Below are positions 1 through 13,889 of a stretch of DNA of 15,276 nucleotides, in pieces. Source of the stretch: a virus (taxonomy: Duplodnaviria; Heunggongvirae; Uroviricota; Caudoviricetes). The position numbers were made by a program, and so were the translations under genes. Below the pieces are notes generated by a model. That model saw only the letters and a program-made list of their open reading frames with translations, was not told the origin of the DNA and ran no database searches. The stretch spans positions 1-15,276 of the IMG/VR virus record IMGVR_UViG_2609459826_000005. One strand, written 5' to 3'. How positions within the stretch are numbered: position 1 is the first letter of the stretch; every line of letters starts with the position of its first letter.

Positions 1-357
1 CAGGTTAAACAGCAGTTGGCTGCGCTTGGCTATACCACCGTTCCTGACTTCATGATCGACGCCTACCTGTGCAAGCTGGCGAAGATAGAACCCTGCCTGA
101 TTGCCGCCGGTTACGACGATTGCGATCTGATGCTCATCCAAGTGTACGCAGTCACCTTGATGGCTCTGACGGCGTACACGCAGCGGATTAAGTCGCAGGG
201 TGCTCCGTCCGGTGCGTCCCGGTCGTTCGACTACAGCGACAGCGTGCTCAACATGCGTGACGCTCTGCTGGCGCTGGATACCTCCGGTTGCACGTCAGAG
301 CTGCCCATCGATGTCGGGCAGAAGGTTGGGATGTTCCTCGTTGTTGGGGGCTGCTGA
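1..357 (+). CDS. phage head-tail connector/adaptor protein (gp6-like), 5' partial
   Basis: Reading frame is open from base 1 (no stop upstream of the listed ORF at 16), ends TGA 355-357 overlapping the next start. Position immediately upstream of head-closure, neck and major tail genes. Family assignment is by synteny and general resemblance, not a recognised motif. Confidence 0.45.
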   Translation, partial: QVKQQLAALGYTTVPDFMIDAYLCKLAKIEPCLIAAGYDDCDLMLIQVYAVTLMALTAYTQRIKSQGAPSGASRSFDYSDSVLNMRDALLALDTSGCTSELPIDVGQKVGMFLVVGGC

Positions 358-530
358 TGACCTGGACACCCGTAAGCGTCCGGCTGCCGCGCTCATTCAC
401 TCGCATCTGGGTGCTGACCGACACCGGTCGGGAGACTACCGGCTACGTCAAATCGGATGGGGAGTGGTTCATTAACTGTGATCGCATCCGGGCTACTGGC
501 GCGGTGGTGCTGCGCTGGAGGGAGGACTGA
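357..530 (+). CDS. small hypothetical phage protein (57 aa), translationally coupled
   Basis: ATG at 357 overlaps upstream stop (TGATG) and its own stop overlaps the next ATG at 530 (TGATG). Coupling on both sides argues for a real small gene; function unknown. Confidence 0.4.
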   Translation: MTWTPVSVRLPRSFTRIWVLTDTGRETTGYVKSDGEWFINCDRIRATGAVVLRWRED

Positions 531-886
531 TGTCGGCAACCGCGAATTGGAGTTACACCGCCAAAGCCACCATCTGGCGCAAGGGCGCAGGCGGCAGGGA
601 TGAGAACGGCGACCCCATAAACGGCTATGACGCGCCGGTAGTCATCATGGTCGATTATGAGGGCGGGCTGTCAAAGCGCATCGGCAACCTGGGCACTGAA
701 ATCGTAGTGAAAAATACCGTCTGGACGGAATACGCGCTGGCCGACGCCGGTGATTACCTGCTGATTGGTGAATCTACCGATGCCGATCCGGTTGCTGCTG
801 GCGCTGACGAGGTGCGGCAGGTTATCCGCTACGCCGATACGTTCGAGCGAGTGGCGGATGATTTCGCCATCCTGACGGGAGTGTAG
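530..886 (+). CDS. head-tail joining / head closure protein
   Basis: 118 aa ORF in the canonical position between connector and HK97 gp10-like gene; start coupled to upstream stop. Assignment by synteny and size. Confidence 0.5.
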   Translation: MSATANWSYTAKATIWRKGAGGRDENGDPINGYDAPVVIMVDYEGGLSKRIGNLGTEIVVKNTVWTEYALADAGDYLLIGESTDADPVAAGADEVRQVIRYADTFERVADDFAILTGV

Positions 887-888
887 CT

Positions 889-1257
889 ATGGGCATCAAA
901 GTTAAGGGCATCAGTCAGGCGCGTAAAAACCTCAATGCCCTAGTCGGCGACATCCAGGGCCGTAAGACCATCAGGGCCATGCAGTCGGCGCTGATTATCG
1001 GGGGCTCGCAGGCTGCGCTCTATACGCCGATCGACACGTCCACGCTGCTGAATAGTCAGTTTCGCGACATAACCGTGAACGGCAATCGCGTAACGGGCCG
1101 TGTGGGATACTCTGCTAATTACGCGGTGTATGTTCACGACCCGAACGTACCTCAGACCTTCCGACGAGCTACAGCACGGAAAGAATTCCTCACGAAAGGC
1201 TTTGAGGATACGCGAAGACAAATCGATGCGGTGATCGCCAAGGAGATGTCGCTATGA
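889..1257 (+). CDS. HK97 gp10-like tail completion (neck) protein
   Basis: 122 aa, GGGAG 8 nt upstream of ATG 889; size and position typical of the HK97 gp10 family; stop overlaps next start (ATGA at 1254-1257). Confidence 0.55.
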   Translation: MGIKVKGISQARKNLNALVGDIQGRKTIRAMQSALIIGGSQAALYTPIDTSTLLNSQFRDITVNGNRVTGRVGYSANYAVYVHDPNVPQTFRRATARKEFLTKGFEDTRRQIDAVIAKEMSL

Positions 1258-1637
1258 CGCCCATGATGCATGAGCGGGTGCGCAACATGTTCGGTGATGC
1301 TGGCCTCACGGCCGGGTTCACGGTGCAGAAGTTGATGTATGACGACCCGGAGGATCTGACGCAGGCCGTGATGGTGTTCAGGCCAAACGGTGGTACCGAC
1401 GTACGAAACGATCTTGGTTCTGAGCATTACGTCCTGGTCGATGTCATTGCTGCGAAGGACAGGCGCGGCGACGCCGCTAATGCTGTTCAGCGTATTGTCG
1501 ATTATGTTCAGGCAAACCCTATGGCTGATGAGTGCGTCGGCTATATCCAGAATATGGGCGCAATCCCCGCCCCGGTGTTAACAGAAGAGGGGCGAATGAC
1601 CTTCCGGCTCCAGTTCGCCTGCACCTACGGCGAATAG
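1254..1637 (+). CDS. tail terminator / tail tube-head joining protein (gpU analogue)
   Basis: 127 aa ORF directly upstream of the major tail protein gene, translationally coupled to the preceding gene; followed by an intrinsic terminator. Confidence 0.5.
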   Translation: MTPMMHERVRNMFGDAGLTAGFTVQKLMYDDPEDLTQAVMVFRPNGGTDVRNDLGSEHYVLVDVIAAKDRRGDAANAVQRIVDYVQANPMADECVGYIQNMGAIPAPVLTEEGRMTFRLQFACTYGE

Positions 1638-1653
1638 CCAACCCAACCAAATA

Positions 1654-1680
1654 GACCCGCTACGGCGGGGTTTTTTTTTT
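1654..1680 (+). terminator. rho-independent terminator (CCCGC-TACG-GCGGG stem-loop + T10)
   Basis: Perfect 5 bp GC stem 1656-1660/1665-1669 with tetraloop, followed by ten T at 1671-1680, 17 nt after the stop at 1637. Confidence 0.7.
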
Positions 1681-1700
1681 AGTCAAAGAGGAAGTTTCAC

Positions 1701-2444
1701 ATGGCTAATTGCCCTAGCTCTAACGAGCGCCTATTCGGTGGCGCGGTGGTGCTGGAAGTCGCCGACGGCTGCCCGGATGTCAAACCACTTGAATCAGAGT
1801 GGAAGGCGCTGGCGGCCGGTACGTCCAAAGGCTTCGACTTCAACCCGAACTCGGTAACCTCAGATGCTGATGACGGCGGCGGCTATGTCGAAACCATCAT
1901 CACCAACAGTGACTTCACCCTGAGCTTTGAAGGTGAGGTCCGCAAGAAGGATAAACTGGATCAGTACGGCGTCGGCAAGTTCATCAAGTATTTCGCTGAC
2001 GAGCTGAAAGCCAAACGCCAGCCCGGAATCTGGGTGCGAATGGACTACGGCCCGGTTGAATTCATCGGCTACATGAACATCAACGCGCTGAGTTCTGACG
2101 GCGGCACCAACGATATCGTCACGTTCTCTACCGAGTTCAAAGTGGGCGATGCCAGCACCATCGAAGTTAACGAAGTGACGGCAGTGGCGGTGACCGGCGT
2201 AACGGTGACCCCAGCTACCAGCACTGGCGCGGCAGGCGGTACCAGCACCTTTACGGTGAATATCGCCCCGACCGGCGCAACCAACAAAGACTTCACCGTA
2301 GCATCAACCGATCCAACCAAAGCCACTGCTACCGCCTCCGGTACCACCGTGACGGTGAACCGCGTCGCCGCCGGCAGCGCGCAGATCGTCATTAACACCG
2401 AAGACGGTAATTTTGTTGCAACCCATACCGTTACCGTCAGCTAA
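1701..2444 (+). CDS. major tail protein with C-terminal Ig-like (Big_2-type) domain
   Basis: 247 aa; AAAGAGGAAG RBS at 1685-1694. The C-terminal ~90 aa is Thr/Val/Ala-rich with alternating beta-strand pattern (VTGVTVTPATSTGAAGGTSTFTVNIAPTGATNKDFTVASTDPTKATATASGTTVTVNRVAAGSAQIVINT), typical of Ig-like domains appended to siphovirus major tail proteins (cf. lambda gpV C-terminus). Confidence 0.8.
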   Translation: MANCPSSNERLFGGAVVLEVADGCPDVKPLESEWKALAAGTSKGFDFNPNSVTSDADDGGGYVETIITNSDFTLSFEGEVRKKDKLDQYGVGKFIKYFADELKAKRQPGIWVRMDYGPVEFIGYMNINALSSDGGTNDIVTFSTEFKVGDASTIEVNEVTAVAVTGVTVTPATSTGAAGGTSTFTVNIAPTGATNKDFTVASTDPTKATATASGTTVTVNRVAAGSAQIVINTEDGNFVATHTVTVS

Positions 2445-2504
2445 CGGCCATTCCAAAGGGTGGCCGCGGCTGCCCTTGATAATGACCGTTAACCTGGGTG
2501 AAAC

Positions 2505-3179
2505 ATGACAGTAGTAGCCATGAAAGAAATTGGCGAGATCGCCATTAGTGACAGCCGGGAAGGTGGTAAGGACTACTTACTGCGGCCTTCCTTCTCAGCG
2601 ATGATGAAGGTTGGTGAACCGGATGAGATCGTGAAGATGTACGCACTAATTCACGGTAGCGAGGTGCAGCAATTGATAGCCTCTTGTACTGCTGGCTTCG
2701 ACTCAATTCCTGAATGGATGGCTCCATCCTTCAATGTTGCAGCTGACAATCTGCTATTCACGTCAATGCTGGTATTGCAGGCCTGCTGTGATGATGATCT
2801 CGATGAGATAATTGGCGAGTGGGCTGATGAAGGCGGCAGAATCTCCTATCAGCCCGGCATGATGGCAAAAGATTTAATCATCATTTTCGCCCGCGAGCTG
2901 ATGCAGCACGGCATCGTAGGTAAAGCCAGTGTGCGACGCCTGCAGCGGCATGAGTCAGGCGAAACGACGAACGAGTTTAAGGCCTTCGACTACATCAGCG
3001 CGGCGCGTAGCCACTTCGGCATGAGCCGGGAAGAGGCTGCGGCGCTGACCATGACCGAGTTTCAGCTGATGCTGGCGCAGAAATACCCTGATCAGAAGGG
3101 TTTCACGCGGGATGAGTACGACGCGGTTGCGGATGACTTCCTGGCGAAACAGGCTGCGAGAAGGGCTAAGCAGAAGTAG
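2505..3179 (+). CDS. putative tail assembly chaperone (position-based)
   Basis: 224 aa acidic protein in the slot between major tail and tape measure genes, where gpG/GT-type chaperones are encoded. No slippery frameshift site recognised; the call is synteny-based only. Confidence 0.4.
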   Translation: MTVVAMKEIGEIAISDSREGGKDYLLRPSFSAMMKVGEPDEIVKMYALIHGSEVQQLIASCTAGFDSIPEWMAPSFNVAADNLLFTSMLVLQACCDDDLDEIIGEWADEGGRISYQPGMMAKDLIIIFARELMQHGIVGKASVRRLQRHESGETTNEFKAFDYISAARSHFGMSREEAAALTMTEFQLMLAQKYPDQKGFTRDEYDAVADDFLAKQAARRAKQK

Positions 3180-3195
3180 CCCACCCAAATAATCA

Positions 3196-3223
3196 AGCCT
3201 CGGCATTGTCCGGGGCTTTTTTG
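3196..3223 (+). terminator. rho-independent terminator after the chaperone gene
   Basis: AGCCTCGG / CCGGGGCT 8 bp stem (one G-U wobble) with CATTGT loop followed by TTTTTTGT, 17 nt after stop at 3179. Confidence 0.6.
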
Positions 3224-3261
3224 TACCCGCAGTAAATCAACCGCGCTTCACACGCGCATTG

Positions 3262-3267
3262 TATAAT
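3262..3267 (+). promoter_or_regulatory. consensus -10 hexamer TATAAT upstream of the KilA-N gene (candidate moron promoter)
   Basis: Exact TATAAT at 3262-3267 immediately preceded by TG, located between a terminator and the KilA-N start. No good -35 found at 17 bp spacing. Confidence 0.35.
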
Positions 3268-3341
3268 CCTAGAGCCTACAGTAAGCGAGCCTGAGAGTTG
3301 CCGTTATAGGTGGCGACCTCTCTAGGAGGCGGCTTCTCTGT

Positions 3342-3905
3342 GTGACAGGCTCTGCTTTCTATAGGCAAATCGCAATGAAATATCCAACCGTATCAGTAAG
3401 CGGCGTTTCCGTTCGCGTTGATGACGAAGGGCGCTATAACCTTAATGATCTTCATGCAGCCGCAGTGGCAAACGGAGAGGCAACAGAACAGCAGCGCCCA
3501 AGTCAGTTTTTGCGTAGTGCTCAAGTTAAGCGCTTCATAAAAGCACTAAAAGCCAAAGTGCAAAAAAGCACTCTGGAACAAATTCAACCACTTAATGTTA
3601 TTAAAGGTGGGGATGAACCAGGCGTTTGGGGTGTTGAACTGTTGGCGATCCGTTATGCCGCATGGATTAAGCCGGAATTTGAGATTGAAGTATATGAGGT
3701 GTTCCGAACGGTGGTTCGCCTCGGCATTAGTGCCATGTCTCGCCTGAACAAAATCGACCACATCATCAACACCGAATCGAAAGAGATCAGCAAGTGCGCC
3801 AGCCAGATGGCCCGGTGGGGTGTCGGTGGTCGTAAGCAGCTATTGCACGCAGCAAGAGATCGCGTCGCCGATGAAGTTCAGATGTACCTGCCAGGCATCG
3901 CGTGA
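3342..3905 (+). CDS. KilA-N domain protein
   Basis: GTG start 3342 with AGGAGG at 3325-3330 (alternative ATG at 3375). N-terminal region contains the hallmark KilA-N pattern (VSVRVDDEGRYNLNDLHAAA...RPSQFLR...IKGG...GVWGVELLAIRYAAWIKPEFEIEV). Confidence 0.8.
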   Translation: MTGSAFYRQIAMKYPTVSVSGVSVRVDDEGRYNLNDLHAAAVANGEATEQQRPSQFLRSAQVKRFIKALKAKVQKSTLEQIQPLNVIKGGDEPGVWGVELLAIRYAAWIKPEFEIEVYEVFRTVVRLGISAMSRLNKIDHIINTESKEISKCASQMARWGVGGRKQLLHAARDRVADEVQMYLPGIA

Positions 3906-3912
3906 AGGTGGC

Positions 3913-3935
3913 AAGGCCCACTCAGGTGGGCTTTA
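3913..3935 (+). terminator. hairpin terminator after KilA-N gene (weak T tract)
   Basis: AGGCCCAC-TCAG-GTGGGCTT hairpin (GCCCAC/GTGGGC perfect stem) followed by TTTAG; 8 nt after stop at 3905. Confidence 0.45.
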
Positions 3936-3960
3936 GATCTCTTATCTCGGGGAGAGGGCG

Positions 3961-4155
3961 GTGAAACCTAAGCAAACATTAACCATTAACAATTTGATAC
4001 CATTCCCAAGCGAAGCGCCTAGAGAAGAGACCATAGAGTGTAATGATGTTTTTCTTGATAATTCAATGCTAGAGGAAAAAATTTCTACTCGAATAGGTTT
4101 TAGTAGATTGATTTTTGTTAATGAAATCAACTCGATCAATTCCATCTCGGAGTGA
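3961..4155 (+). CDS. small hypothetical protein (64 aa) in AT-rich moron segment
   Basis: GTG start with GGGGAGAGGG just upstream; ends 37 nt before the peptidase gene. A 73 aa ORF on the opposite strand (3942-4163) covers the same DNA, so strand and reality are uncertain. Confidence 0.3.
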   Translation: MKPKQTLTINNLIPFPSEAPREETIECNDVFLDNSMLEEKISTRIGFSRLIFVNEINSINSISE

Positions 4156-4192
4156 ATTATCATATGCGCATACCTTTCAATAGGATGCGAAA

Positions 4193-4771
4193 ATGATTAA
4201 CGAATATGATTTCGTGACAGCGGCAGGTCATATAGCTAAACATGAAGCCGGTCACTGGCTTGCGGCGTTTAAATTAGGCTGGAACCCAAGAGGTATAGGC
4301 TTGAGAGTGCCGCCTCATGCTAAAGATCACATGGGTTATTCAGAAACAAGTCACAAAGTCGATTTAAGCAGCATTGAGGATGTCCGGGATTACGCAAGAG
4401 GCAGGGTAAAAATTCTCTACAGTGGCGTATATGCAGAGCACTTTGACGGAAAAGACTTTGATCACGAATCCATAATGCGTGATATGAAGCGTGGCGGCGG
4501 TGCTTATTCTGATTTCTGGAAAGCTGAAGAAATCTACTTCTTTTACTACAACTGCCTCGACACAAAGGGAGAGTGGGATGAAGAGTTTCAGCCTGTTATT
4601 TGCGACGTTCAGCTCATGATCGAAATGCATTATGACTTCATCACCTTGGTAGCCAAATTTGTTATGGCGAGGGCAAATTTTGTCGGTCAACGCATAGAGA
4701 TTTCATCCACCGACCTGATCAGGCTGTTCGAAAATAGCGCCATTAATCTACCGGATCACGACCCTGCCTAA
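4193..4771 (+). CDS. standalone FtsH-like (peptidase M41-type) zinc metallopeptidase domain protein
   Basis: 192 aa; HEAGH at residues 17-21 (AGHIAKHEAGHWLAAFKLGWNPRGIGLRV), followed by a PRG motif and LYSG...AE / GGGAYSD segments. This parallels the FtsH protease domain (HEAGHA...IIPRGRALG...LYGGRLAEE...GASND) as recalled from E. coli FtsH. No AAA+ ATPase or transmembrane part. AGGA 7 nt upstream of ATG. Confidence 0.65.
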   Translation: MINEYDFVTAAGHIAKHEAGHWLAAFKLGWNPRGIGLRVPPHAKDHMGYSETSHKVDLSSIEDVRDYARGRVKILYSGVYAEHFDGKDFDHESIMRDMKRGGGAYSDFWKAEEIYFFYYNCLDTKGEWDEEFQPVICDVQLMIEMHYDFITLVAKFVMARANFVGQRIEISSTDLIRLFENSAINLPDHDPA

Positions 4772-4883
4772 CTGCGGGTTTTTCCGGCGCTAGCCTCTTG
4801 AGATCAATAAATCAGCGTTTGCCGTTGCGCCTGTGCTATTCCTGGGTAGGATGTTTCCACTTTTACCAATGGGGAATAGGGAT

Positions 4884-5270
4884 ATGAAGCGTTTACTGAT
4901 CATGGCTATTGCTGGGCTATCACTAACCGGCTGCGGCAAACCTGCACCGACAAGAGATGAGGCCTTTCAAATGGCTAAGCAGGAAATGTCGATGGCTCTT
5001 TGTGGCGATAGGAGTGCAAGCTGTTTTATTGCTGAAGGAGGAAGCTCTAAAGTATCAGAGAAGAAAAATGACAATACCTATAACGCCTCAGCTACATTTA
5101 ACAGCCTAAAAGGGAAGGGCAAGGATTTGGAATATAGCGGCGGGGGCGTTTTTTTCGAAATAGATGACGAAACAAGGGCTGTATATGTCAAATCCATCTC
5201 AGCATGGTCTGAGGATGGAAAAAAGAGCATTGAGCTTTGTGGTTCGAACTATAAATTCTGTACTAAATGA
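4884..5270 (+). CDS. small lipoprotein (128 aa), candidate superinfection-exclusion moron
   Basis: Likely start ATG 4884 (in-frame upstream GTG/ATG at 4833/4851/4869 lack a signal peptide). N-terminus MKRLLIMAIAGLSLTGC has a basic n-region, hydrophobic core and lipobox L-T-G-C. Followed by a strong terminator. Confidence 0.7.
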   Translation: MKRLLIMAIAGLSLTGCGKPAPTRDEAFQMAKQEMSMALCGDRSASCFIAEGGSSKVSEKKNDNTYNASATFNSLKGKGKDLEYSGGGVFFEIDDETRAVYVKSISAWSEDGKKSIELCGSNYKFCTK

Positions 5271-5286
5271 AGCCCTAATAAACAGC

Positions 5287-5309
5287 AACCCGCCGAGGCG
5301 GGTTTTTTT
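5287..5309 (+). terminator. rho-independent terminator (CCCGC-CGAG-GCGGG + T7) abutting the tape measure gene
   Basis: 5 bp GC stem 5289-5293/5298-5302, tetraloop, seven T at 5303-5309. Confidence 0.7.
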
Positions 5310-5324
5310 ATGCCCGGAGAGAAC

Positions 5325-7727
5325 ATGGCCAGCGAGGAGCAGGTAGGTAATATTGTCTATCAGGTGCAGATGGATGTTGCCAATCTTATTGAGGCGCAGC
5401 GTAAAGTAAACGAACGCCTTGAGAAGATGAATAGTGGAGTATCAAAAGCTGCCAGCAAGTTTGATGAGCTTCAGACCAGTATAAGCAGAGTAGCTGGCGC
5501 GATCGCTGCTTCAATTGTCGTTGAATGGGGGAAGGCATTTCTTGTAGCCGCTGACAATATGAGCCAACTTAACGCTCGAATTGAAAGGCTAACTGGTAGT
5601 GCTTCTGTCGCATCTCAGACCATGCAAAGTCTGATGAATATAAGCTCAACAACAGGAGGATCTCTCCAGGATACAGCCAAGCTGTGGGAAACGTTAAGCA
5701 CTGCGTTGCGGAGCACTGGTGCCACTAATGGCCAAATATTGCAGCTTACCGATACCCTTCAAAAAATTGGTCGAATTGGAGGCACATCTGCCGAGGAAAT
5801 GGCTAATGCGCTGCGCCAATTCGGACAGTCTATTTCATCCGGCGTTGTTAGAGCAGAAGAATTTAACTCTATTCTTGAGCAAATGCCTGAGTTGGCAAGG
5901 CAGATGGCGGCAGGGCTTGGAATTGGTATTGGTGAATTGCGTCAGTTGATGCTGGATGGGAAACTTTCTGCTCAAGATGCACTCAATGCAATTCAGAAGC
6001 AAACCAGCATCGTGAATGCAGAGTTCGCAAAATTGCCCCGCACCTTATCTCAGGCCAATGCTGCTCTTACCAATTCGTTTCTGTCAATGGTTGACTCAAT
6101 TAACCAGACTACAGGCGCGAGCAGAACCATGGTGGCTGTAATTGACTCCATCACCACAGCCATAGACAGGCTGACTGGGAAAACAGCTTCAGCAGCAGCT
6201 CAAATTTCCGATCTCAATAGCACAGCAGAGATGTTCGAGCGAAGGGCGAGGACATGGTCTTGGCTGGGCCTGGATGGTTGGGAGGCTCAAAGCAAGGCGC
6301 TTGCAGGGCTAAGCAACAAAGCTGCAGCTCTCGTTGGGGATATTTCTGCCGTGACCCAAGCCTCTCAAGAGGCCTCTAACACAAAGCCAATAAACATTAA
6401 AACGACCGGAGACGATGCGGCTACATCGAAGCTGATAAAAAACTCAGAGCGCCGCTTAGCGCTCGCCAAGCTGGAAGGTGAAGCCAGAGCCAGACTGCAG
6501 GCCCAATATGATGCAGCAGACGCTGGCATCACCGATCAGAAACGCATCAAAGCTCTTCAGGATGAATACGCAGAAACCTATCGGGTTACTGAGGCGCGGA
6601 AAGAGAGCAACAAAGAGGGCAAGACCTCCGCCTCGCAGGCTGAATCCATTGCTCAGAAACTGGCGAGCCTCAAACAGCAATCCGAACTCGCTGCAGATTC
6701 GACCAGTGAGTTGAGTCGAGAGCAGGCCATGCTAAGGGCCGAGCAATCCCTCGGCAGCGCCGCCACCCAGTCCCAGATTAAAGAGGCAAGGGAATACGCA
6801 GCCAGGACGTGGGACGTTGCTAATGCCCTGAAAATGCGTCAGCAGGCGGAGCAGGCCTCCCGGTTTATAAATCAGGAAGTGTCAGCTGCGAAGGTTCAAC
6901 GCGATCCTTACACAGGTGAAGCGCAGGACCCAGCCGCGCAGGTCAACGAGGAAGAGCAGCGTAAACTCGAGGCCCTGGCTAAATACCAGGAACTGGGCGT
7001 AATCAACGCGCAGCAGTTCGAAGACGGAAAGACGGCCATCGCAAGGCAGGCATCGAACGATCGCATCAGTATTGCCCAGCAGGAGGCTAAGCGTCAGGTT
7101 GACGTGATGAACATGCTGCTTGGCGGGATCGGTGATGGTTTCTCAGGCCTGGCTGAAATCGTGTCTAAAAGCGCTGGCGAAAGCAATGCCGCTTACAAGA
7201 CACTGTTCGCTATCAGTAAAGCCTTTGCGGTTGCTCAGTCCACTCTGAACCTTCAGCTTGCACTCTCAAACGCCATGGCCTCGGGTCCATTCCCCTGGAA
7301 CATGGCAGCAATGGCGCAGGTTGCTGCAGCTGGCGGCCAGGTGATCTCATCTATCGGCGCAATGTCATATGGTGGCGGGCGCGAACACGGCGGCCCGGTA
7401 TCTGCCAGCTCCATGTACCGTGTGGGCGAGGGCGGTAAACCTGAGATTTTCAAAGCCAGCAATGGCAGCCAGTACATGATCCCCGGCGATAACGGTCGCG
7501 TCATCAGTAACCGGGATATTGGCGGGGGTGGCGGGGCGTTCAATTACAGCCCGGTCATTCAGGTCAACGGTGATCCGACAGAGCAGACGCTTGCCATGCT
7601 TGAAGCGGCGGTTAAGCGCGGTGCGCAGCAAGGCTATGCCATGGCCGTCAGCGATGTCGCCAGCGGCAAAGGTAAGCTTTCCAACGCGCTGACCAACAAC
7701 TTCAACACCAGTCAACGCCTCACATAA
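5325..7727 (+). CDS. tail tape measure protein
   Basis: Long ORF (800 aa from ATG 5325; in-frame ATG also at 5310 but it abuts the terminator T-run, whereas CCCGGAG at 5313-5319 is a well-spaced RBS for 5325). Ala/Gln/Glu-rich coiled-coil-like middle, Gly-rich C-terminus, and position between chaperone and minor tail genes. Confidence 0.9.
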   Translation: MASEEQVGNIVYQVQMDVANLIEAQRKVNERLEKMNSGVSKAASKFDELQTSISRVAGAIAASIVVEWGKAFLVAADNMSQLNARIERLTGSASVASQTMQSLMNISSTTGGSLQDTAKLWETLSTALRSTGATNGQILQLTDTLQKIGRIGGTSAEEMANALRQFGQSISSGVVRAEEFNSILEQMPELARQMAAGLGIGIGELRQLMLDGKLSAQDALNAIQKQTSIVNAEFAKLPRTLSQANAALTNSFLSMVDSINQTTGASRTMVAVIDSITTAIDRLTGKTASAAAQISDLNSTAEMFERRARTWSWLGLDGWEAQSKALAGLSNKAAALVGDISAVTQASQEASNTKPINIKTTGDDAATSKLIKNSERRLALAKLEGEARARLQAQYDAADAGITDQKRIKALQDEYAETYRVTEARKESNKEGKTSASQAESIAQKLASLKQQSELAADSTSELSREQAMLRAEQSLGSAATQSQIKEAREYAARTWDVANALKMRQQAEQASRFINQEVSAAKVQRDPYTGEAQDPAAQVNEEEQRKLEALAKYQELGVINAQQFEDGKTAIARQASNDRISIAQQEAKRQVDVMNMLLGGIGDGFSGLAEIVSKSAGESNAAYKTLFAISKAFAVAQSTLNLQLALSNAMASGPFPWNMAAMAQVAAAGGQVISSIGAMSYGGGREHGGPVSASSMYRVGEGGKPEIFKASNGSQYMIPGDNGRVISNRDIGGGGGAFNYSPVIQVNGDPTEQTLAMLEAAVKRGAQQGYAMAVSDVASGKGKLSNALTNNFNTSQRLT

Positions 7728-7736
7728 GGAGTTCCC

Positions 7737-8207
7737 ATGGGGATCAGCAGCACCATTGATTTCCCGCACCAGTACCTACCAATGCCCCAGCGTTCCGGGC
7801 ATGGATTCACTCCCGTAAGCCCCCTCCAGCGTTCCATCATGACATCCGGCCGCACGCGCCAGCGTCGCAAATACACCTCGGTTCCGACTGAGGCGGGGGT
7901 TTCGTGGGTGTTTAATGATGCACAGGCGCAGCTGTTTGAGGTGTGGTTCAGGGATGTGATCACTGATGGCGCAGCGTGGTTCAACATGCGCATGCGCACG
8001 CCAATGGGCGTTGGTGACTACGTCTGCCGGTTCAAGGATATCTACGACGGGCCGGTGCTGTTCGGGTTAGGGTTCTGGAAATTCACGGCAACTCTGGAAC
8101 TGTGGGAACGTCCTATTCTGCCGCCTGGCTGGGGTAATTTCCCTGAGTTCATCGTGGGGCAGAGCATTATCGATTACGCGCTCAACAAGGAGTGGCCTGA
8201 AGCATGA
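7737..8207 (+). CDS. minor tail protein (distal tail/tip assembly)
   Basis: 156 aa; AAGGAG at 7725-7730; first gene after tape measure; stop overlaps next start. Confidence 0.6.
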   Translation: MGISSTIDFPHQYLPMPQRSGHGFTPVSPLQRSIMTSGRTRQRRKYTSVPTEAGVSWVFNDAQAQLFEVWFRDVITDGAAWFNMRMRTPMGVGDYVCRFKDIYDGPVLFGLGFWKFTATLELWERPILPPGWGNFPEFIVGQSIIDYALNKEWPEA

Positions 8208-8692
8208 CCAGTCCAACCCTGAACAGGCTTTACGCCAGCGGCGGCAGCGAGGCGCTACTGAATACGTTGCAGATTACCGTCGGTGGGCAGGATTACTGGC
8301 TGGTCGAGAACTTCGAAGATATCACCGCTGTTACAGAGGCGGGGGCGACAGTGACATTCCAGGCAGCTGCAATGGCCGTCGCGCTGCCAGCCAGGAACAA
8401 AGACGGTACGCAGGATCTGCAGTTCGCCATCAGCAACATTGACGGCATCGTTTCCACTGCGATACGCAACGCCCTGGCTAACCTGAACAACGGCGCGCTG
8501 GTAATGCGGCAGTACATATCGACCGACCTTAGCTACCCGGCGGCACCACCTATCGTTCTGCAGATTAAGGACGGGTACTGGAAGGCCACAGAGGTGCAAA
8601 TTACTGCCGGATTCCTGAATATCCTGAAAACCGCGTGGCCGCGATACCGATACACGCTTCCTGTGTTCCCGGGACTCCGCTACCTACAGTAG
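8204..8692 (+). CDS. minor tail protein
   Basis: 162 aa; ATG overlaps upstream stop (ATGA); AAGGAG 9 nt upstream; syntenic with lambda L-position genes though not recognisably lambda L. Confidence 0.6.
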   Translation: MTSPTLNRLYASGGSEALLNTLQITVGGQDYWLVENFEDITAVTEAGATVTFQAAAMAVALPARNKDGTQDLQFAISNIDGIVSTAIRNALANLNNGALVMRQYISTDLSYPAAPPIVLQIKDGYWKATEVQITAGFLNILKTAWPRYRYTLPVFPGLRYLQ

Positions 8693-8701
8693 GAAATCAC
8701 C

Positions 8702-9082
8702 ATGTTCAATCCAGATAAATACCGTTCTGTCGAGTGGCAGAAGGGCGGGCGCGCTTACCCCGCGCTTGACTGCTTTGGCATCGTCAACGAAATCAGGCGC
8801 GATCTGGGTCTGGATCCGTGGCCGGATTTCGCCGGAGTCACGAAGGATGATAACGGCCTAGATCGGGAAGCGCGCGGGCTGATTGCTGGCCTGACTCGAT
8901 GTGAACCGACCCCGGGCGCAGGTATCGCCTGTTATTCCGGCTCTGTTGTTACACACGTTGCCATCGTTGTCGAGATTGACGGCCAACTGCGCGCTGCGGA
9001 GTGCAATCCCCGCACTAACGTAACCTTTCTGCCGCTGGCGCGGTTTGCGCGCCGCTTTGTTCGCGTGGAGTATTACCAGTGA
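8702..9082 (+). CDS. NlpC/P60-family tail protein (gpK-like)
   Basis: 126 aa with putative catalytic Cys in ALDCFGIV and downstream His in VVTHVAIVVE, the Cys-His arrangement of NlpC/P60 peptidases; position equivalent to lambda K. Confidence 0.65.
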   Translation: MFNPDKYRSVEWQKGGRAYPALDCFGIVNEIRRDLGLDPWPDFAGVTKDDNGLDREARGLIAGLTRCEPTPGAGIACYSGSVVTHVAIVVEIDGQLRAAECNPRTNVTFLPLARFARRFVRVEYYQ

Positions 9083-12000
9083 CGATCCGTATCTATCCCT
9101 CCCGGTTGCCGGGCGAACCGTTGGAAACGCATCAACATGAAACGATGACCCTTAGCGCCTGGTTTGCGCAGAACGTGAAGGACTGGACGCCGGATCAGCA
9201 GCATCCGGTTGCGGTTGAAATCGACGGTGTCCCCGTCCCGCCGGCAGAGTGGACACTGCGCGTTATCAAGCGAGAAACAGACGTCAGGTTGTATCCGGTG
9301 CCATACGGTACCGGCGCAGAAATCGCTATCTGGGTTGCCGTCAGCGTAGCTGTCGCCTCTGCTGCGTACAGCATCTACATGATGAGTACAATGTCACAGG
9401 CGGGTGGCGGCGGTGCCCAGGCGGCCAGCGGAGACCAGATTGACCTCAACCCGGCCAAAGCGAACGCTGCGAAACTTGGTGATCCCATCCGGGAAATCTT
9501 CGGCAAATATCGGGTCTGGCCTGATTACGTTGTGCAGCCGGTAAGCCGGTTCGTCAACGAGACCAGCATGGAAACCAGCATGTTCCTGTGCGTGGGCGTC
9601 GGTGACATGGTGATTAACCAGTCCGATATCCGGATTGGCAATACGCCGATCTCCGCTTTCGGTACCGACGTGCGTTACACCATCTACCCACCTGGCACTA
9701 ATGTATCCGGCGACACGCGTACCGAAAACTGGTTCAACTCACCAGAGGTCGGGAATACCGGTTCCGGTACCGCCGGGCTGGACCTTGGCTCAAGCGGTCC
9801 GGAGACGGTCAGTATTATCGCTGACGCTCTGGTAGTGTCCGGAAACTCCATCACGCTCGTTGACGTATCGGCGTCAGGCGGCGATGAGGAGATCCCGCCG
9901 TCGTGGACTGTAGGAACGGTGATCACCGTGCTGGCGCCAAACTCTTATACGGTGGTGTCATCCGGCGGTTACAGCGTCATTTATGGCGGGATAGAGGAAC
10001 TTGCACCTTATGTCGGCATGCCGGTGACGCTGAACTATAACGGCAACGACTACGACCTGGTGATCGCCAGCTATGCCCCGGGCGTTCCGGCGGTACCCGG
10101 GGTTGGCGGCAGTGCCGCGACCTTAACCGCCAGCGCCGCGCCGACGACTTATGATTTCAGTACCGCACCTGTGACGTTCAGCATCAGCTGGCAGGGTACG
10201 ACCTACCCGGTCTCGCTGGTTACCAATTACGTCACCATGTCGGGTCTGGTTTCCTCGATCACCTCGCAGCTCTCAGGCTCCGGTCTGATTGCCAGAGATA
10301 ACAGTGGGCGTCTCGAAATCGGTGAGGCCAGCAGCCCGTTCGCTGGCGGTTCCATAACCAACAGCCCTTTACCCGCTGCTGTGTTCGGCGATGCGCCAGT
10401 CAATAAGGCGGGCGTGAAATCAACGGGCGGCACGGCGGAAGTCAGGGCGCACATTACCCTGGCTTACAACAGCGCCACCGGCACGCCGTTTACCGGGTTA
10501 CCGGAAGGCATTCAGCGGTTCTCGCTGGGGTTGGCTGGCAATCAGTTCCGGATCACCGATGTGGACAGCCAGACGGTCACGATTGAGCGGTTAACTGTGA
10601 CAACAGGCTCTGGCGGTGAAACCATCACGACGCCGGATCCATCGTGGCCTGGCTTCACTGAGCGCATGCTGCTGGATGCGACTGTAACGGGTGTCAGTGA
10701 CGATTATGAGTGGGTCGGCCCGTTCCTGGCCTGCCCGGACGGGGAAACGCTGGACGCATTCGAGGTGAACATCAACTTCCAGAGCGGCCTGGTGCGTTAT
10801 ACCGACCAGGGGAATAAACGCTCCATGCCGGTACGCCTGGTGATCCAGTATCGCAAGGTCGGCACCACCGCCTGGCAGCAGCAGTCTCCGTTCTATTCAC
10901 GCAGCACTGAAAACCAGATCGGGTTTACGCATCGCTACAGTGTGTCGCCGGGCCAATATGAGATCCGGATGCGCCGCACTGAACCGGTTAAGGGGGGCAG
11001 TACCCGCGACCAGGTATTCTGGCAGGCGCTGCGCTCACGACTCAGCAAGCGCCCCACGAAGTACAATGGTGTCACCACCATGGCGCTGACCGTGCGCACA
11101 GGGAATCGCCTGGCGGCCATGTCCGATCGCCGGATAAGCGTCACGCCAACCCGGATTTACAGTGGCGGCAGAACGGCGCGGAGCATTAGCGGGGCGCTTT
11201 ACCACGTCCTAGGGTCGCTGGGGTTCACGGCCAGTCAGATAGATACGGCGGCAATTGACGCGCTGGAACAAACCTACTGGACGCCACGCGGTGAGAAGTT
11301 CGACTGGGCGAGCGGGGAGAGCAAGTCAGCGCTTGAGGTATTGCAGAAAATCACCAACGCAGGGATGGGGTATTTTCTGCTGTCTGATGGGCTGGCGTCT
11401 GCCGGCAGGGAAGGCATTAAACCCTGGGTAGGCATGATCACCCCTCAGGAAACCACCGAGGAGCTGCAGACCGCGTTTAAAGCCCCGTCACAGGACGATT
11501 ACGACGGTGTGGACGTGACGTATATCAACGGCACCACCTGGGCAGAGGAGACCGTGCAGTGTCGCCTGCCTGGCAATCCTACGCCGTTGAAAATCGAGAG
11601 CTATACGCTGGATGGTGTTCTGGATGAGGACCGGGCCTACCGCATCGGCATGCGCCGGTTGCTGGGCTACCAGCTGCAGCGCCTGCAGCACACCACCTAC
11701 ACCGAGATGGATGCGCTCTGCTATGAGTTCATGGATCGCATAGTGCTGGCCGATGACATCCCGGGCAGCCAGACTCTTAGTTGCCTGATTACCGATATGA
11801 CGTATGACAGCAGCAAAATTACCATGACGCTAAGTGAGCCGCCGGACTGGTCGTTCCAGAACCCGCGCGTGATTATCCGCCATCAGGATGGCAGGGCATC
11901 AGCCATGGTGGTGCCGACACGCATTGACGACTTCACCATCTCGGTGCCGTACAGCGCCGCGCTGGAGCCCGAACTGTGGGCAATGAACGACGCGTACATT

Positions 12001-12165
12001 GAGCCGCCGCGACTGCTGTTCTGCTCGTCTGTGCGGGTGCCGTATGACGCCCTGGTAGGCGAAATATCACCGGGAAACGACGGTATCAGTCAGGTAACAG
12101 CAATTCAGTATCACCCCGGAAAATATGCCTACGATGACGCCACTTACCCCGGCGACGTTACTTAA
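9079..12165 (+). CDS. central tail fibre / tail tip protein with gpI-like N-terminal domain and gpJ-like core
   Basis: 1028 aa; GTG start overlaps upstream stop (GTGA). N-terminal ~200 aa resembles lambda gpI organisation (short soluble domain, hydrophobic stretch IAIWVAVSVAVASAAYSIYMM, then a PAKANAAKLG...IFGKYRV segment). Further in, QYEIRMRRTEPVKGGSTRDQVFWQALRS matches the lambda J NIRMRR...TLW motif as recalled. Confidence 0.75.
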   Translation: MTIRIYPSRLPGEPLETHQHETMTLSAWFAQNVKDWTPDQQHPVAVEIDGVPVPPAEWTLRVIKRETDVRLYPVPYGTGAEIAIWVAVSVAVASAAYSIYMMSTMSQAGGGGAQAASGDQIDLNPAKANAAKLGDPIREIFGKYRVWPDYVVQPVSRFVNETSMETSMFLCVGVGDMVINQSDIRIGNTPISAFGTDVRYTIYPPGTNVSGDTRTENWFNSPEVGNTGSGTAGLDLGSSGPETVSIIADALVVSGNSITLVDVSASGGDEEIPPSWTVGTVITVLAPNSYTVVSSGGYSVIYGGIEELAPYVGMPVTLNYNGNDYDLVIASYAPGVPAVPGVGGSAATLTASAAPTTYDFSTAPVTFSISWQGTTYPVSLVTNYVTMSGLVSSITSQLSGSGLIARDNSGRLEIGEASSPFAGGSITNSPLPAAVFGDAPVNKAGVKSTGGTAEVRAHITLAYNSATGTPFTGLPEGIQRFSLGLAGNQFRITDVDSQTVTIERLTVTTGSGGETITTPDPSWPGFTERMLLDATVTGVSDDYEWVGPFLACPDGETLDAFEVNINFQSGLVRYTDQGNKRSMPVRLVIQYRKVGTTAWQQQSPFYSRSTENQIGFTHRYSVSPGQYEIRMRRTEPVKGGSTRDQVFWQALRSRLSKRPTKYNGVTTMALTVRTGNRLAAMSDRRISVTPTRIYSGGRTARSISGALYHVLGSLGFTASQIDTAAIDALEQTYWTPRGEKFDWASGESKSALEVLQKITNAGMGYFLLSDGLASAGREGIKPWVGMITPQETTEELQTAFKAPSQDDYDGVDVTYINGTTWAEETVQCRLPGNPTPLKIESYTLDGVLDEDRAYRIGMRRLLGYQLQRLQHTTYTEMDALCYEFMDRIVLADDIPGSQTLSCLITDMTYDSSKITMTLSEPPDWSFQNPRVIIRHQDGRASAMVVPTRIDDFTISVPYSAALEPELWAMNDAYIEPPRLLFCSSVRVPYDALVGEISPGNDGISQVTAIQYHPGKYAYDDATYPGDVT

Positions 12166-12206: not shown

Positions 12207-12221
12207 ATGCCCGGAGCGAGC

Positions 12222-13889
12222 ATGACCACATACCGCACGAATAATCCATTTGGGTCAATGGATCCGAAAGACCTTTTCGATAACTCCCAGAATCTTGACT
12301 ATGCCCTAAACGATATAACAAAATCCTTGTGGACAGACCGCTTAGGAAGAGTAAGGAAAAGTTATTGGGGAATGGAGCAGGCTTTTTCTGCTCAACTTAT
12401 CAGCCAGCAGCAAAGATTTAATTATTTCATTCAGAATTCAGGGTATAAAGTAATTGGTGAATATACCCAAGGTCCTCTGACTGTTACTGATTATAATCAA
12501 CTGATTCGCTATCAGAGTGAATTTTATAAATTAAATTCTTCTACTTCCATTCCATTTACCACTACGGGCAATGACTCCACGTCATGGTCAAACGATTCTT
12601 CACATTTTGTCAGTGTAGGGGATGCGGCCATTCGCCAAGAATTATCTGGTGCTGGCGGCTCAGGTTTGATTGGAGATTTACTCAAGCCTATCACGTGGGA
12701 TGGGTTTTCTGGAGGAGCGGCCTGGGACGGTGTAACCAATGATAATATTCCCTACCAGGCGGCAGCTCAATATGGTCGAAAATTTTTAATGCCATATGGC
12801 GTTGGAAATATAACAGAGTATTCAGTAGGTCTTTTTGCGCCGAATTTCTCTGTTCTTGGTGAGGCAGAGCAATTAGGCTCATTGCAATATCCTGTTGATG
12901 ATTTCCGTCCATCAAGGACGGATACAAAATACTCAAAGTATCACGAAACGGATCCAGCATCTAATCGATGGGATTCCTGTTCTATACATACAATTGTTAA
13001 ATGTCCTCAGGACGGTGCTAATCCAAAAGGAAATGCGGCAGCTGTAACTGGATATGCCAGGGCTATCAATAGCGAGGGTGGTGATCATGTTGGCGTACAT
13101 GGTAGAGCAGAAGGTGATACCAGTTACGACTTCGGTACTGGGATGGGGTTGTGGGGTGGATGGCTGTCAGCCGTTTACAGACCTAATACAGGCTCAGCTG
13201 GGAAGCCAATAAAGTCTATTATTGGTTGTGAGATTGACGTGCAAAATGATGGGCCACACGCACAAAACCCCAATCCGGATGGTGTTGGTGAGCTGCGTGG
13301 TCTCGCGGTAGGGAATACTGGCACCGGCCATCTTAATCAAGGCGTTGATGTATTCGCTAACAATAGCGGTGCGCGTGGAAGGTGGTGGATGGGCGTTCAC
13401 GTACGTGCTAATTCCATTGTAGGAAGACATCTGGTATCAACAGAGGGGGAAGTTGGTAATGCAATGGTGATTGCTGGAGCGGCATCGTCAGGGACGCGTT
13501 ACGGCGGATTAAAATTTAGTAAATATCCCTACACAGCGGTAGGACAAGGAGGTCATCTTTCTTATGGAATTGATTTCAGGGAGGCAACAATTCGCTTACA
13601 AAACGCGATTGTAATGGGGCCTCAGCACCGGATTACATGGGAGCCTGACACTGCAAAGGGTGTTGCGGTAGAGACAGAGGGAGGGGATGTAATTACTTTC
13701 CGGGGATATAACATAGCCATAAATAACTCCAAAGTTTTGGGGACTAGGCAAACTGGTATTTTTAATATGTCGGGGACGGCAGATGGAACCTCATACAATA
13801 CAGAAACCGTCACACTTGTAAATCTTGCCAGATACCTCAAGAAAGTAACTGATGCATTAATATTTCATGGCCTTATTGGCCCAACTTGA
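12222..13889 (+). CDS. tail fibre / tailspike protein (putative receptor-binding protein, possible depolymerase)
   Basis: 555 aa from ATG 12222 (in-frame ATG at 12207 abuts the terminator; CCCGGAG RBS serves 12222). Last large gene of the tail cluster; visibly lower GC than neighbours; Gly/Asn/Thr-rich C-terminal half suggestive of a beta-rich binding or enzymatic domain. Confidence 0.65.
   Translation: MTTYRTNNPFGSMDPKDLFDNSQNLDYALNDITKSLWTDRLGRVRKSYWGMEQAFSAQLISQQQRFNYFIQNSGYKVIGEYTQGPLTVTDYNQLIRYQSEFYKLNSSTSIPFTTTGNDSTSWSNDSSHFVSVGDAAIRQELSGAGGSGLIGDLLKPITWDGFSGGAAWDGVTNDNIPYQAAAQYGRKFLMPYGVGNITEYSVGLFAPNFSVLGEAEQLGSLQYPVDDFRPSRTDTKYSKYHETDPASNRWDSCSIHTIVKCPQDGANPKGNAAAVTGYARAINSEGGDHVGVHGRAEGDTSYDFGTGMGLWGGWLSAVYRPNTGSAGKPIKSIIGCEIDVQNDGPHAQNPNPDGVGELRGLAVGNTGTGHLNQGVDVFANNSGARGRWWMGVHVRANSIVGRHLVSTEGEVGNAMVIAGAASSGTRYGGLKFSKYPYTAVGQGGHLSYGIDFREATIRLQNAIVMGPQHRITWEPDTAKGVAVETEGGDVITFRGYNIAINNSKVLGTRQTGIFNMSGTADGTSYNTETVTLVNLARYLKKVTDALIFHGLIGPT

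Follow-up and report, generated by a model that had tools for sequence, protein, structure and literature searches.

The tape measure protein (TMP) gene analyzed here raises the question of whether its composition changes within the gene, and if so, whether this reflects one acquisition or many. The window, that is, the whole stretch of 15,276 nucleotides that was analyzed, had been described in a first-pass annotation as carrying a TMP gene whose first ~1.1 kb is more AT-rich than its remainder and than the upstream structural genes. A single recombination event was proposed there, which would have brought in the upstream morons together with the 5' part of a foreign TMP gene. According to the Hendrix/Juhala definition, a moron is an extra gene located between genes that are adjacent in relatives, with deviant GC content and its own promoter and terminator, and expressed from the repressed prophage (PMC3594210).

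The identity of the gene was clear from matches to Pfam family PF20155 (TMP_3; 185.9 bits, cut-off 41; domain at aa 77-266 of the 805-aa ORF) and to TIGR02675 (tape_meas_nterm; 76.4 bits, cut-off 21.35), and the phrog_1538 match spanned its whole length. Its start at position 5325, as chosen in the first-pass annotation, is the one used by homologues (MASEEQ...), and GGAG is present upstream. The position of this long gene, between the tail-chaperone position and distal-tail/tip genes, also fits a tape measure, whose length is expected to set the length of the tail. The gene order was DUF6246, morons, TMP, 156-aa protein, DUF1833, peptidase and TipJ-like protein (Table 1). A megablast search of positions 3000-8000 against the phage collection gave no match, and relatives were then reached via protein searches and E. 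coli genomes. Searching genome contigs with the 156-aa protein yielded 6 loci, too few for a survey of the family, and IMG/VR was used instead. A scan of the window against Rfam gave no match.

Table 1. Features of the variable block, the TMP gene and the flanking core (window coordinates).
Feature	Position	Strand	Evidence and properties
DUF6246 gene, tail-assembly-chaperone position, last conserved core gene	2505-3179	+	PF19759 2.7e-66; GC 0.532, GC3 0.631
Terminator-like hairpin and T-run after DUF6246 stop; left edge of variable block	3195-3218	+	Scan; -14.4 kcal/mol, z -3.2
KilA-N moron	3342-3905	+	PF04383 9e-18; GC3 0.484
Second moron cassette (small ORF and 192-aa gene)	3916-4872	+	GC 0.34 and 0.45
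Small ORF of second cassette (alternative strands)	3961-4155 or 3942-4163	+ or -, respectively	
192-aa gene, HEAGH motif	4193-4771	+	phrog_36675
Conserved ~90-nt leader (linker 1), ending at lipoprotein start codon	4795-4883 (linker 4763-4889)	+	Alignment of relatives
Lipoprotein moron, 128 aa, signal peptide with lipobox LTGC, end ...YKFCTK	4884-5270	+	phrog_20460 1.8e-56; GC3 about 0.43
Intrinsic-terminator hairpin and T-run between lipoprotein stop and TMP start, within linker 2	5287-5304	+	Scan; -12.1 kcal/mol, z -2.2
Linker 2	5287-5429	+	80-83% nt conserved in A2-type relatives, adjoining sequence not alignable
TMP gene	5325-7727	+	805-aa ORF
TMP N-module (aa 1-361, TMP_3/tape_meas_nterm domain), AT-richer, exchangeable	5325-6407	+	GC 0.487, GC3 0.457; PF20155, TIGR02675
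Conserved island (aa 362-447, GDDAATSK...SIAQKLA), junction zone	6408-6664	+	GC3 0.553; protein alignment
TMP middle module, two main alleles (C1 and C2)	6665-7361	+	GC3 0.622
TMP C-terminal module, conserved along with tail-tip genes	7362-7727	+	GC3 0.686
Tail-tip core, high GC (156-aa protein, DUF1833, CHAP-like peptidase, TipJ-like 1028-aa protein)	7737-12165	+	phrog_384, phrog_396, PF08875, weak CHAP match

We found that the composition was far from uniform. Sliding GC was 0.55-0.62 in the structural genes (1-3300) and 0.39-0.53 over 3300-6000, and it rose via 0.52 (6000-6600) to 0.56-0.60 (6450-12100). By region, GC was 0.559 in the upstream core (530-3179), 0.464 in the moron block directly upstream of the TMP gene (3180-5324) and 0.588 in the downstream core (7737-12165). 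Within the TMP gene it was 0.486 over 5325-6449 versus 0.572 over 6450-7727 (chi-square p = 3.1e-5), so both the AT-rich front and the low-GC moron block that had been noticed by eye are real. GC3 rose stepwise along the gene, without a single sharp edge (0.46, 0.55, 0.62 and 0.69 for 5325-6407, 6408-6662, 6663-7361 and 7362-7724, respectively), and GC2 was steady at 0.45-0.50; since the change was in GC3 and GC2 was flat, the shift is not an amino-acid effect. The maximum-likelihood position of a single GC3 change point was nt 6591 (LLR 14.05, a value reached by 0 of 1000 permutations). This is ~180 nt away from a homology breakpoint at 6408, which lies inside the 2-unit support interval (6228-6621), as does the site near 6450 that the first-pass annotation had given for the change. 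Codon usage of the 5' part resembled that of the morons (r = 0.82) more than that of core genes (r = 0.43), and the 3' part showed the opposite pattern, closer to the core than to the morons; the bootstrap 95% intervals of the codon-distance difference excluded zero for both parts. Besides, GC correlated with the fraction of 15 family relatives aligning along 500-12100 (Spearman 0.69, p = 2e-9). Mean GC was 0.480 in bins aligned in fewer than half of these relatives and 0.590 in bins aligned in at least 80% of them.

Comparison with relatives, which were prophages of E. coli, Enterobacter and Leclercia, revealed homology breakpoints that recurred in independent relatives at 4788-4798, 5287-5429, 6400-6408, 6651-6716 and 7362-7384. 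In the A2-type relatives L013, L014, L107 and L108, which carry an alternative allele of the N-module, homology resumed exactly at 6408. The alternative N allele of L013 also had low GC3 (0.38-0.48), which rose at the same place. Similarly, N-module homology to Enterobacter phage CobraSix stopped at 6408 and that to E. coli E3 at 6400, which places a junction within the TMP gene close to where it had been expected. On the right side of the conserved island, homology to L002 (E. coli GN25) stopped at 6664 and homology to L003 resumed at 6651; the island itself was 82-100% identical at the amino acid level in relatives whose N-modules were only 49-58% identical. In the middle module (aa 450-700), relatives fell into two classes, one of 40-56% and one of 92-100% identity. 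Both were found with either N allele, all four combinations (A1-C1, A1-C2, A2-C1 and A2-C2) being present. Windowed identity over 120 homologues accordingly placed blocks of ~100% beside blocks of 12-56%. All family relatives aligned from 7362-7384 on, with additional alleles (42% or 14% identity) in the last 50 aa. When the two halves of the protein were compared separately, their nearest relatives differed beyond the immediate lineage: P0016, P0063, P0078 and P0079 were closest for aa 1-450, and P0049 and P0054 for aa 400-800. In the phage collection, CobraSix and Skatevirus matched the N half best, and the best matches to the C half were Klebsiella prophages. N-modules 82-86% identical in amino acid sequence occurred in IMG/VR phages with unrelated tail-tip genes. 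The search for a donor lineage of the N-module found none, the nearest homologues in phages of ~47% GC (e.g., Skatevirus SeSz-2) being at most ~62% identical in amino acid sequence. No co-variation of the N-module with the type of DUF6246 or tail tube was found; for example, DUF6246 and the N-module were 44% and 99% identical, respectively, in L002, and 96% and 49% in L094. We conclude, with a probability of roughly 0.8, that the TMP gene of this enterobacterial prophage is a modular mosaic, in which a swappable AT-richer front third is joined to a conserved back.

These comparisons show directly that composition steps within the gene, that homology breaks off at recurrent points, that segments assort independently and that short anchor sequences are conserved. 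We infer that modules may be exchanged at these anchors through homologous recombination, when relatives co-infect a cell or are already resident in it. Candidate anchors are the 3' end of the DUF6246 gene with its terminator (~3187), the moron leader (4795-4883), the terminator with the first ~35 TMP codons (5287-5429), the 85-codon island (6408-6664) and 7362-7500. The pair of anchors used would set the cargo: a single moron, only the N-module, or both morons and N-module at once. In this model, the first 1083 nt of the TMP gene belong to the same AT-richer, fast-turnover pool as the morons between DUF6246 and TMP, its last ~360-1000 nt are part of the conserved GC-rich tail-tip core, and the present arrangement is the product of several exchanges.

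The region upstream of the TMP gene had the features of a moron site. Homology to most relatives stopped at 3157-3187. The chaperone-position gene abuts the TMP gene in CobraSix and in ~23 distinct IMG/VR loci, and 4-5 ORFs are inserted at this site in the window, with GC of 0.34-0.50 compared with 0.53-0.59 in the flanks. The tail-tip core had GC of 0.57-0.59 and GC3 of 0.62-0.71 and was 85-90% identical at the nucleotide level in all family relatives. Of the morons, only KilA-N belonged to a Pfam family; no match in Pfam, NCBIfam or PADLOC was obtained for the lipoprotein, the small ORF or the 192-aa protein. The KilA-N gene was 97-100% identical at the nucleotide level in L002 and 75-98% in L006, and was missing from the otherwise near-identical L012, and this moron thus assorts independently of its neighbors. 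The second cassette was shared as one piece at 88.5% nt identity only with L003, and at 87-100% with L012. The lipoprotein gene has the classic anatomy of a moron, consisting of conserved leader, gene and terminator, and it occupies the same position as HK97 gene 15. Its leader was found in 55 fetched loci (36 distinct) and was 88-100% identical in relatives with unrelated flanks on both sides. A candidate promoter could be read by eye within it (TTGCGC-16-TGgTAGGAT), although a scan for promoter consensus made no call in the leader. The leader would probably serve as moron promoter and 5'UTR and, in addition, as a left-hand recombination anchor. An RNA element was considered and dropped, as the leader had no significant fold (z +0.68). 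A weaker hairpin was present at 4763-4778.

A different explanation is functional linkage, in which the exported lipoprotein would exclude superinfecting phages or block injection and would be matched to the N-module. An arms race would then select for the two jointly and have them exchanged as one unit. The lipoprotein was 73-81% identical in amino acid sequence in relatives whose N-module was 75-99% identical. The two co-occurred in L021, L047 and L069, phages whose tail tips are unrelated, as did diverged homologues of both in L074-76, L079, L083 and L087, and an exported small protein was located directly upstream of the TMP gene in ~30 of 55 distinct loci. It has also been reported that HK97 gp15, encoded at the same position, blocks phages in a tail-dependent way (PMC3594210). 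However, L002 has an N-module ~99% identical to that of the window but a lipoprotein gene only ~70% identical (65-73% nt), L001 and L002 have near-identical lipoproteins with different N-modules, and in many cases an 85%-identical N-module is not preceded by a lipoprotein gene. Tight pairing as a rule was rejected on these grounds; physical adjacency alone accounts for the co-occurrence, and the lack of lipoprotein matches in the three databases also speaks against a matched pair, which we regard as unlikely. It is similarly doubtful, though conceivable, that the pre-TMP site is a dedicated cassette slot. Here, a terminator and the ~90-nt leader, which is conserved in many phage lineages, would enclose interchangeable genes. 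Their small exported products (lipoproteins or periplasmic proteins, as a rule with a cysteine among the final few residues) would act as entry blockers or superinfection-exclusion factors against incoming tails. On this view, the TMP N-module would turn over rapidly and look foreign in composition as the counter-move in the same arms race, and not only through hitch-hiking.

The originally proposed event, import of all the morons plus the TMP 5' part (3187-6408) from a single foreign phage, held up in part. Against the A2-type relatives L013, L107 and L108 the interval is indeed one non-homologous block with its right edge exactly at 6408, and its morons and N-module are alike in codon usage, as noted above. 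However, neither close relatives nor identity were uniform across the block, as L002, L003, L006 and L012 hold different subsets at very different identities. L002 shares KilA-N (3200-3900) and TMP 5500-6400 at 97-100% nt identity and lacks 3900-4790, and L012, without KilA-N, matches the window at 87-95% over 3900-4299 and at about 100% starting at 4300. L003 has only 3916-4872 of the block, and L006 only KilA-N. Furthermore, two short conserved linkers (4763-4889 and 5287-5429) split the block into cassettes, and phages in which the chaperone and TMP genes directly adjoin each other can carry N-modules 82-86% identical in amino acid sequence. A single import is therefore quite improbable. 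The distribution of homologous segments instead indicates several exchanges, in what appears to be ordinary module shuffling of temperate phages.

An explanation without transfer is that low 5' GC is an intrinsic constraint of TMP genes, due to amino-acid composition, expression level or translation kinetics. It is consistent with the fact that in all family prophages examined, with any N allele, GC3 was lower in the 5' or middle part of the TMP gene than at its 3' end. However, it is GC3 and not GC2 that differs, and GC3 was level along the gene in a Bordetella relative without morons, which means that genes of this type do not inherently carry such a gradient. In addition, N-modules of CobraSix and L032-type phages, 80-86% identical in amino acid sequence to that of the window, had GC3 of 0.57-0.60; low GC3 is thus not a fixed property of the module. 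The TipJ gene had GC3 of 0.71, and by analogy with lambda gpJ a virion presumably needs only a few copies of its product as well. Moreover, the shuffling of alleles can be seen directly, and the step is congruent with homology breakpoints. This constraint is therefore very unlikely to be the cause. Chance fluctuation or an assembly artefact can be practically dismissed, given the permutation result and since identical TMP sequence was present in 11 contigs of public assemblies (ENA and Logan among them) and a Logan contig covered the entire window at 99.94% identity; the mosaic is thus not an assembly chimera.

The TMP/moron pattern is textbook phage mosaicism, and the locus provides a coordinate-level example of temperate-phage tail genes rebuilt from modules, in which short anchors in and around the TMP gene would let the initial third of an essential structural gene and the moron slot swap, each on its own or both at once. 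With regard to annotation, likeness of one TMP half does not place a phage, and low-GC segments in these prophages probably represent a flexible gene pool rather than one import. Current understanding is unchanged, since work going back to HK97 had already established both mosaicism in phages and the presence of morons at this position. The one element that might merit experiments is the conserved leader before diverse exported proteins.

Among known systems, the P2/P4 defence hotspots of temperate phages and satellites carry variable cargo with conserved flanks. Here too, highly diverse small cargo genes at a fixed position are framed by a leader and a downstream boundary that are both conserved, but the cargo consists of putative small exported proteins with no PADLOC matches, and the slot is part of the late tail operon. 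TMP genes of siphoviruses, e.g., those of mycobacteriophages and lactococcal phages, are modular and mosaic. The window shares with them segments with different histories, length variants (here 800 aa and, with the island deleted, 746 aa) and the alternation of conserved and variable stretches. In contrast, the boundary here is a clear GC3 step, the N-module has its composition in common with the adjoining moron slot, and an embedded enzymatic motif is not involved.

CobraSix (vB_EclS_CobraSix, Cobrasixvirus), for which a literature search found nothing useful, has the same order of Ig-domain tail tube, DUF6246-like protein, TMP, small proteins, peptidase and large tail protein. Within its TMP, homology to the N-module amounts to 80% amino acid identity and extends up to the 6408 boundary. 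It differs in having no morons before the TMP gene, in a longer TMP (1029 aa) with an extra N-terminal extension, in the GC3 of the homologous segment (0.58 versus 0.457 in the window), and in the remaining TMP and tail-tip genes, which are unrelated or distant. The possibility that CobraSix shares the low-GC3 N-module was rejected, as its low-GC3 first 900 nt correspond to the extra extension.

The closest parallel in position is HK97 gene 15, the founding moron, located in the chaperone-TMP interval; this moron and lambdoid mosaicism were described by Juhala et al. (2000) and Cumby et al. (2012), as summarized in PMC3594210. Like gene 15 (PMC3594210), the genes described here are extra genes between tail-chaperone and TMP genes, with deviant GC and their own terminator, and, as in lambdoid phages, homology boundaries are sharp, as expected from exchange among relatives. 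Unlike gp15, a YebO-like inner-membrane protein, the product here is an exported lipoprotein that falls outside this family (no Pfam match at E ≤ 0.01), and only the position is common to both. Moreover, several morons are stacked at this site, and the exchanged tract often continues into the TMP gene itself, within its first third.

Windowed identity was computed for 120 homologues of the tape measure protein (TMP; P numbers), in which blocks of ~100% identity adjoined blocks of 12–56%. For example, P0016-type TMPs were 96–100% identical up to aa 450, 40–56% at aa 450–700 and ~100% thereafter, and P0049/P0054-type TMPs were 12–84% identical to aa ~350 and 94–100% from aa 400. The two alleles of the N-terminal module (N-module, 5325–6407) and the two of the middle module (6665–7361) occurred in all four combinations. 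Nucleotide breakpoints repeated at identical coordinates across independent genomes (see table; L numbers denote loci or contigs of relatives), and the two variable modules were separated by a conserved island (6408–6664, aa 362–447, GDDAATSK...SIAQKLA) that was 82–100% identical even where the N-module was only 49–58% identical. The recurrent breakpoints and the island therefore establish a junction within the TMP gene; the first-pass annotation had proposed such a chimera with a junction near 6450, and breakpoints indeed recur ~40 nt away, at 6400–6408. A common 746-aa variant (L001 and P0018-type proteins) lacked ~54 residues at about aa 375–430 (nt ~6440–6610), most of the island; slightly shorter tails would be expected in these phages if tail length tracks TMP length. 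Also, the last ~50 residues (7575–7724) came in three or more allelic versions (identities of about 100%, 42% and 14%) on otherwise near-identical TMPs, which makes a further junction just 5' of the stop codon.

An assembly artefact was ruled out by a Logan contig (L010) matching the window over its full length at 99.94% identity, and by an identical TMP on 11 contigs from public assemblies, whose sources name E. coli. TMP copies at 93–99% identity were named from Enterobacter and Leclercia, and prophage relatives in complete E. coli genomes lay mostly beside yciB-yciC-ompW, with one beside intS and a tRNA-Arg gene. The window, which carries a siphovirus tail module, is an Enterobacteriaceae prophage. 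In one contig with the identical TMP (L009 13700–22403), homology ended after window nt 9022 and the sequence passed into DinI, resolvase and the host genes yciB/yciC/ompW/trpA; it is therefore a prophage copy without the TipJ and fibre genes. In a close relative from Leclercia adecarboxylata NCTC13032 (L015 7055–9991), the TMP gene was broken into three ORFs (312, 212 and 432 aa); this prophage is probably decaying and its TMP gene a frameshifted pseudogene. An ORF running off the 3' end of the window (14908–15276) contains GFPSPAGDY, a putative UmuD/LexA-type self-cleaving peptidase motif.

Features of the window and its relatives (window coordinates unless a locus is named)
Feature	Position	Strand	Remarks
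Head-tail genes			5' of tail tube gene in window order; ORF map, family scans
Ig-domain tail tube gene	1701–2444		ORF map, family scans
DUF6246 gene, tail-chaperone position	2505–3179		Family scans
Second terminator-like hairpin	3195–3218		3' of DUF6246; -14.4 kcal/mol
Small-gene block	3342–5270		ORF map
73-aa ORF	3942–4163	-	Gene calls for L009–L011
64-aa ORF	3961–4155	+	Called in RefSeq L003
Recurrent breakpoint	4788–4798		Nucleotide comparison with relatives
Conserved ~90-nt leader	4795–4883		Ends at lipoprotein start codon; 88–100% conserved
Lipoprotein gene	4884–5270		Lipobox LTGC
Hairpin and T-run	5287–5304		Between lipoprotein gene and TMP start (abutting); -12.1 kcal/mol
Recurrent breakpoint	5287–5429		Nucleotide comparison with relatives
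TMP gene	ORF 5310–7727		Start placed at 5325 because homologues begin there and GGAG lies just upstream
Recurrent breakpoint	6400–6408		L001 ends 6400; CobraSix N-module match ends 6408; L013, L014, L107, L108 begin 6408
Recurrent breakpoint	6651–6716		L002 ends 6664; L003 begins 6651; L001 restarts 6716
Recurrent breakpoint	7362–7384		Nucleotide comparison with relatives
156-aa protein, DUF1833, CHAP-like peptidase, TipJ-like 1028-aa protein	Up to 12165		3' of TMP; family scans
Tail fibre or spike gene	12207–13889		ORF map, family scans
Small exported proteins 5' of TMP	Window 4884–5270; L003 7773–8288; L004 5861–6238; L006 5724–6221; L013 7581–7943; L016 6387–6728; L017 5976–6554		

The 5' part of the TMP gene had been described by eye as AT-richer, and this drop is real: GC was 0.486 at 5325–6449 versus 0.572 at 6450–7727 (chi-square p = 3e-5), compared with 0.559 in the upstream core (530–3179), 0.464 in the moron block (3180–5324) and 0.588 in the downstream core (7737–12165). 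The difference sits at third codon positions, GC2 being nearly constant, and GC3 rose from 0.457 (5325–6407) through 0.553 (6408–6662) and 0.622 (6663–7361) to 0.686 (7362–7724). In a likelihood change-point scan of the gene the best single GC3 break was nt 6591 (LLR 14.05, reached by 0 of 1000 permutations), with a support interval of 6228–6621 that accommodates a change at roughly 6450. In synonymous codon usage, the N part correlated with the morons (r 0.82) and only weakly with core genes (r 0.43), and the 3' part more with the core (0.86) than with the morons (0.65); for both parts, bootstrap intervals of the codon-usage distance difference exclude zero.

The step is not intrinsic to TMP genes. 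The alternative N allele (in L013) is also low, with GC3 of 0.38–0.48 rising to 0.60–0.71 at the same place. The TMP profile of a moron-free Bordetella relative is flat (GC3 0.53–0.71, no trend), and N-modules 80–86% identical at the protein level in Enterobacter phage vB_EclS_CobraSix and IMG/VR phages L032–L046 have GC3 of 0.57–0.60. CobraSix was considered as sharing a low-GC3 N-module and rejected, its low-GC3 first 900 nt being an extra N-terminal extension rather than the homologous segment. Across 500–12100, GC per 200-nt bin correlated with the proportion of family relatives (n = 15) that aligned (Spearman 0.69, p 2e-9), averaging 0.480 in bins aligned in fewer than half of them and 0.590 in bins aligned in at least 80%; low GC is a mark of the flexible gene pool in this phage family. 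The tail fibre/spike gene is also low (GC 0.452, GC3 0.362). Its homology to relatives stops at ~12350–12640, past a conserved N-terminal ~50–145 residues, beyond which relatives instead encode a fibre, an SGNH/GDSL esterase or a tailspike; this site looks like a second exchange hotspot.

Whether morons and N-module arrived in a single import, as the first-pass annotation suggested, depends on the relatives compared. Judged by alignment, they form one replaced block against relatives with the other N allele (L013, L107, L108), which showed no alignment over 3187–6408 apart from two short linkers. Other relatives split the block. E. coli GN25 (L002) shares KilA-N (3200–3900) and TMP 5500–6400 at 97–100% nucleotide identity, with a lipoprotein gene only 65–73% identical and 3900–4790 absent; L012, which lacks KilA-N and is only 85% identical upstream, is 87–95% identical at 3900–4299 and ~100% from 4300 on. 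Within 3187–6408, L003 shares only 3916–4872 and L006 only KilA-N. In L001 and L002 the lipoproteins are nearly identical, but the N-modules match that of the window at 90% and 99%, respectively. N-modules at 82–86% identity also occur in phages with unrelated tail-tip genes, where no gene separates the chaperone-position gene from TMP. The block was therefore built by several exchanges rather than one import. No donor lineage was found; phages matching the N-module in overall composition, such as Skatevirus SeSz-2 (~47% GC), have N-modules only ~62% identical.

The recurring breakpoints, conserved anchors and independently assorting segments suggest, we infer, homologous recombination between related phages at anchors near ~3187, 4795–4883, 5287–5429, 6408–6664 and 7362–7500. 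The choice of anchor pair would set the cargo (one moron, the N-module or both), and the position of the N-module, flanked by the moron slot and the first strong internal anchor, would explain why its composition is that of the moron pool.

The leader before the lipoprotein gene remained conserved in relatives with unrelated sequence on both sides. Copies were present in 55 fetched loci, of which 36 were distinct, following varied upstream genes and preceding quite different exported-protein genes. It had no significant RNA fold and no Rfam match. It contains TTGCGC-16-TGgTAGGAT, a putative weak extended -10 promoter; a consensus promoter scan called none in the leader. The leader is probably a shared moron promoter/leader and recombination anchor, and its presence before diverse exported proteins is the sole item we judge to merit further work. 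In prophage relatives the gene just 5' of TMP nearly always encodes a small lipoprotein or signal-peptide protein. Among 55 distinct loci it was a lipoprotein in 18 and another signal-peptide protein in 12; 23 were scored as 'none', and in most of these the chaperone-position gene directly adjoins TMP. The exported proteins fall into several sequence families unrelated to one another, and most have a cysteine among their final few residues (...CTK, ...CK, ...CKWK, ...CKE). A 192-aa moron protein (4193–4771) carries HEAGH, metalloprotease-like by eye, and matched only phrog_36675, with no Pfam, NCBIfam or PADLOC family match; a ~28% identical homologue (HEVGH) lies in a different slot of L015, after DUF1833 (11013–11567). 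At 3942–4163, a very AT-rich stretch (GC 0.34), ORFs on opposite strands overlap, and public annotations conflict on which carries the gene.

Deviant GC, together with a promoter and a terminator of their own, defines morons, and HK97 gene 15 is located between the chaperone and TMP genes (PMC3594210). The lipoprotein gene has the same position and the textbook layout, and matches the definition apart from its putative promoter and expression. Having no Pfam, NCBIfam or PADLOC match, the protein falls outside the gp15/YebO family; position alone is in common with gp15, so that a superinfection-exclusion role can only be hypothesized. The window shows the same mosaicism as lambdoid phages and shares the modular nature of TMP genes generally, and its TMP is another example of this well-known phenomenon.
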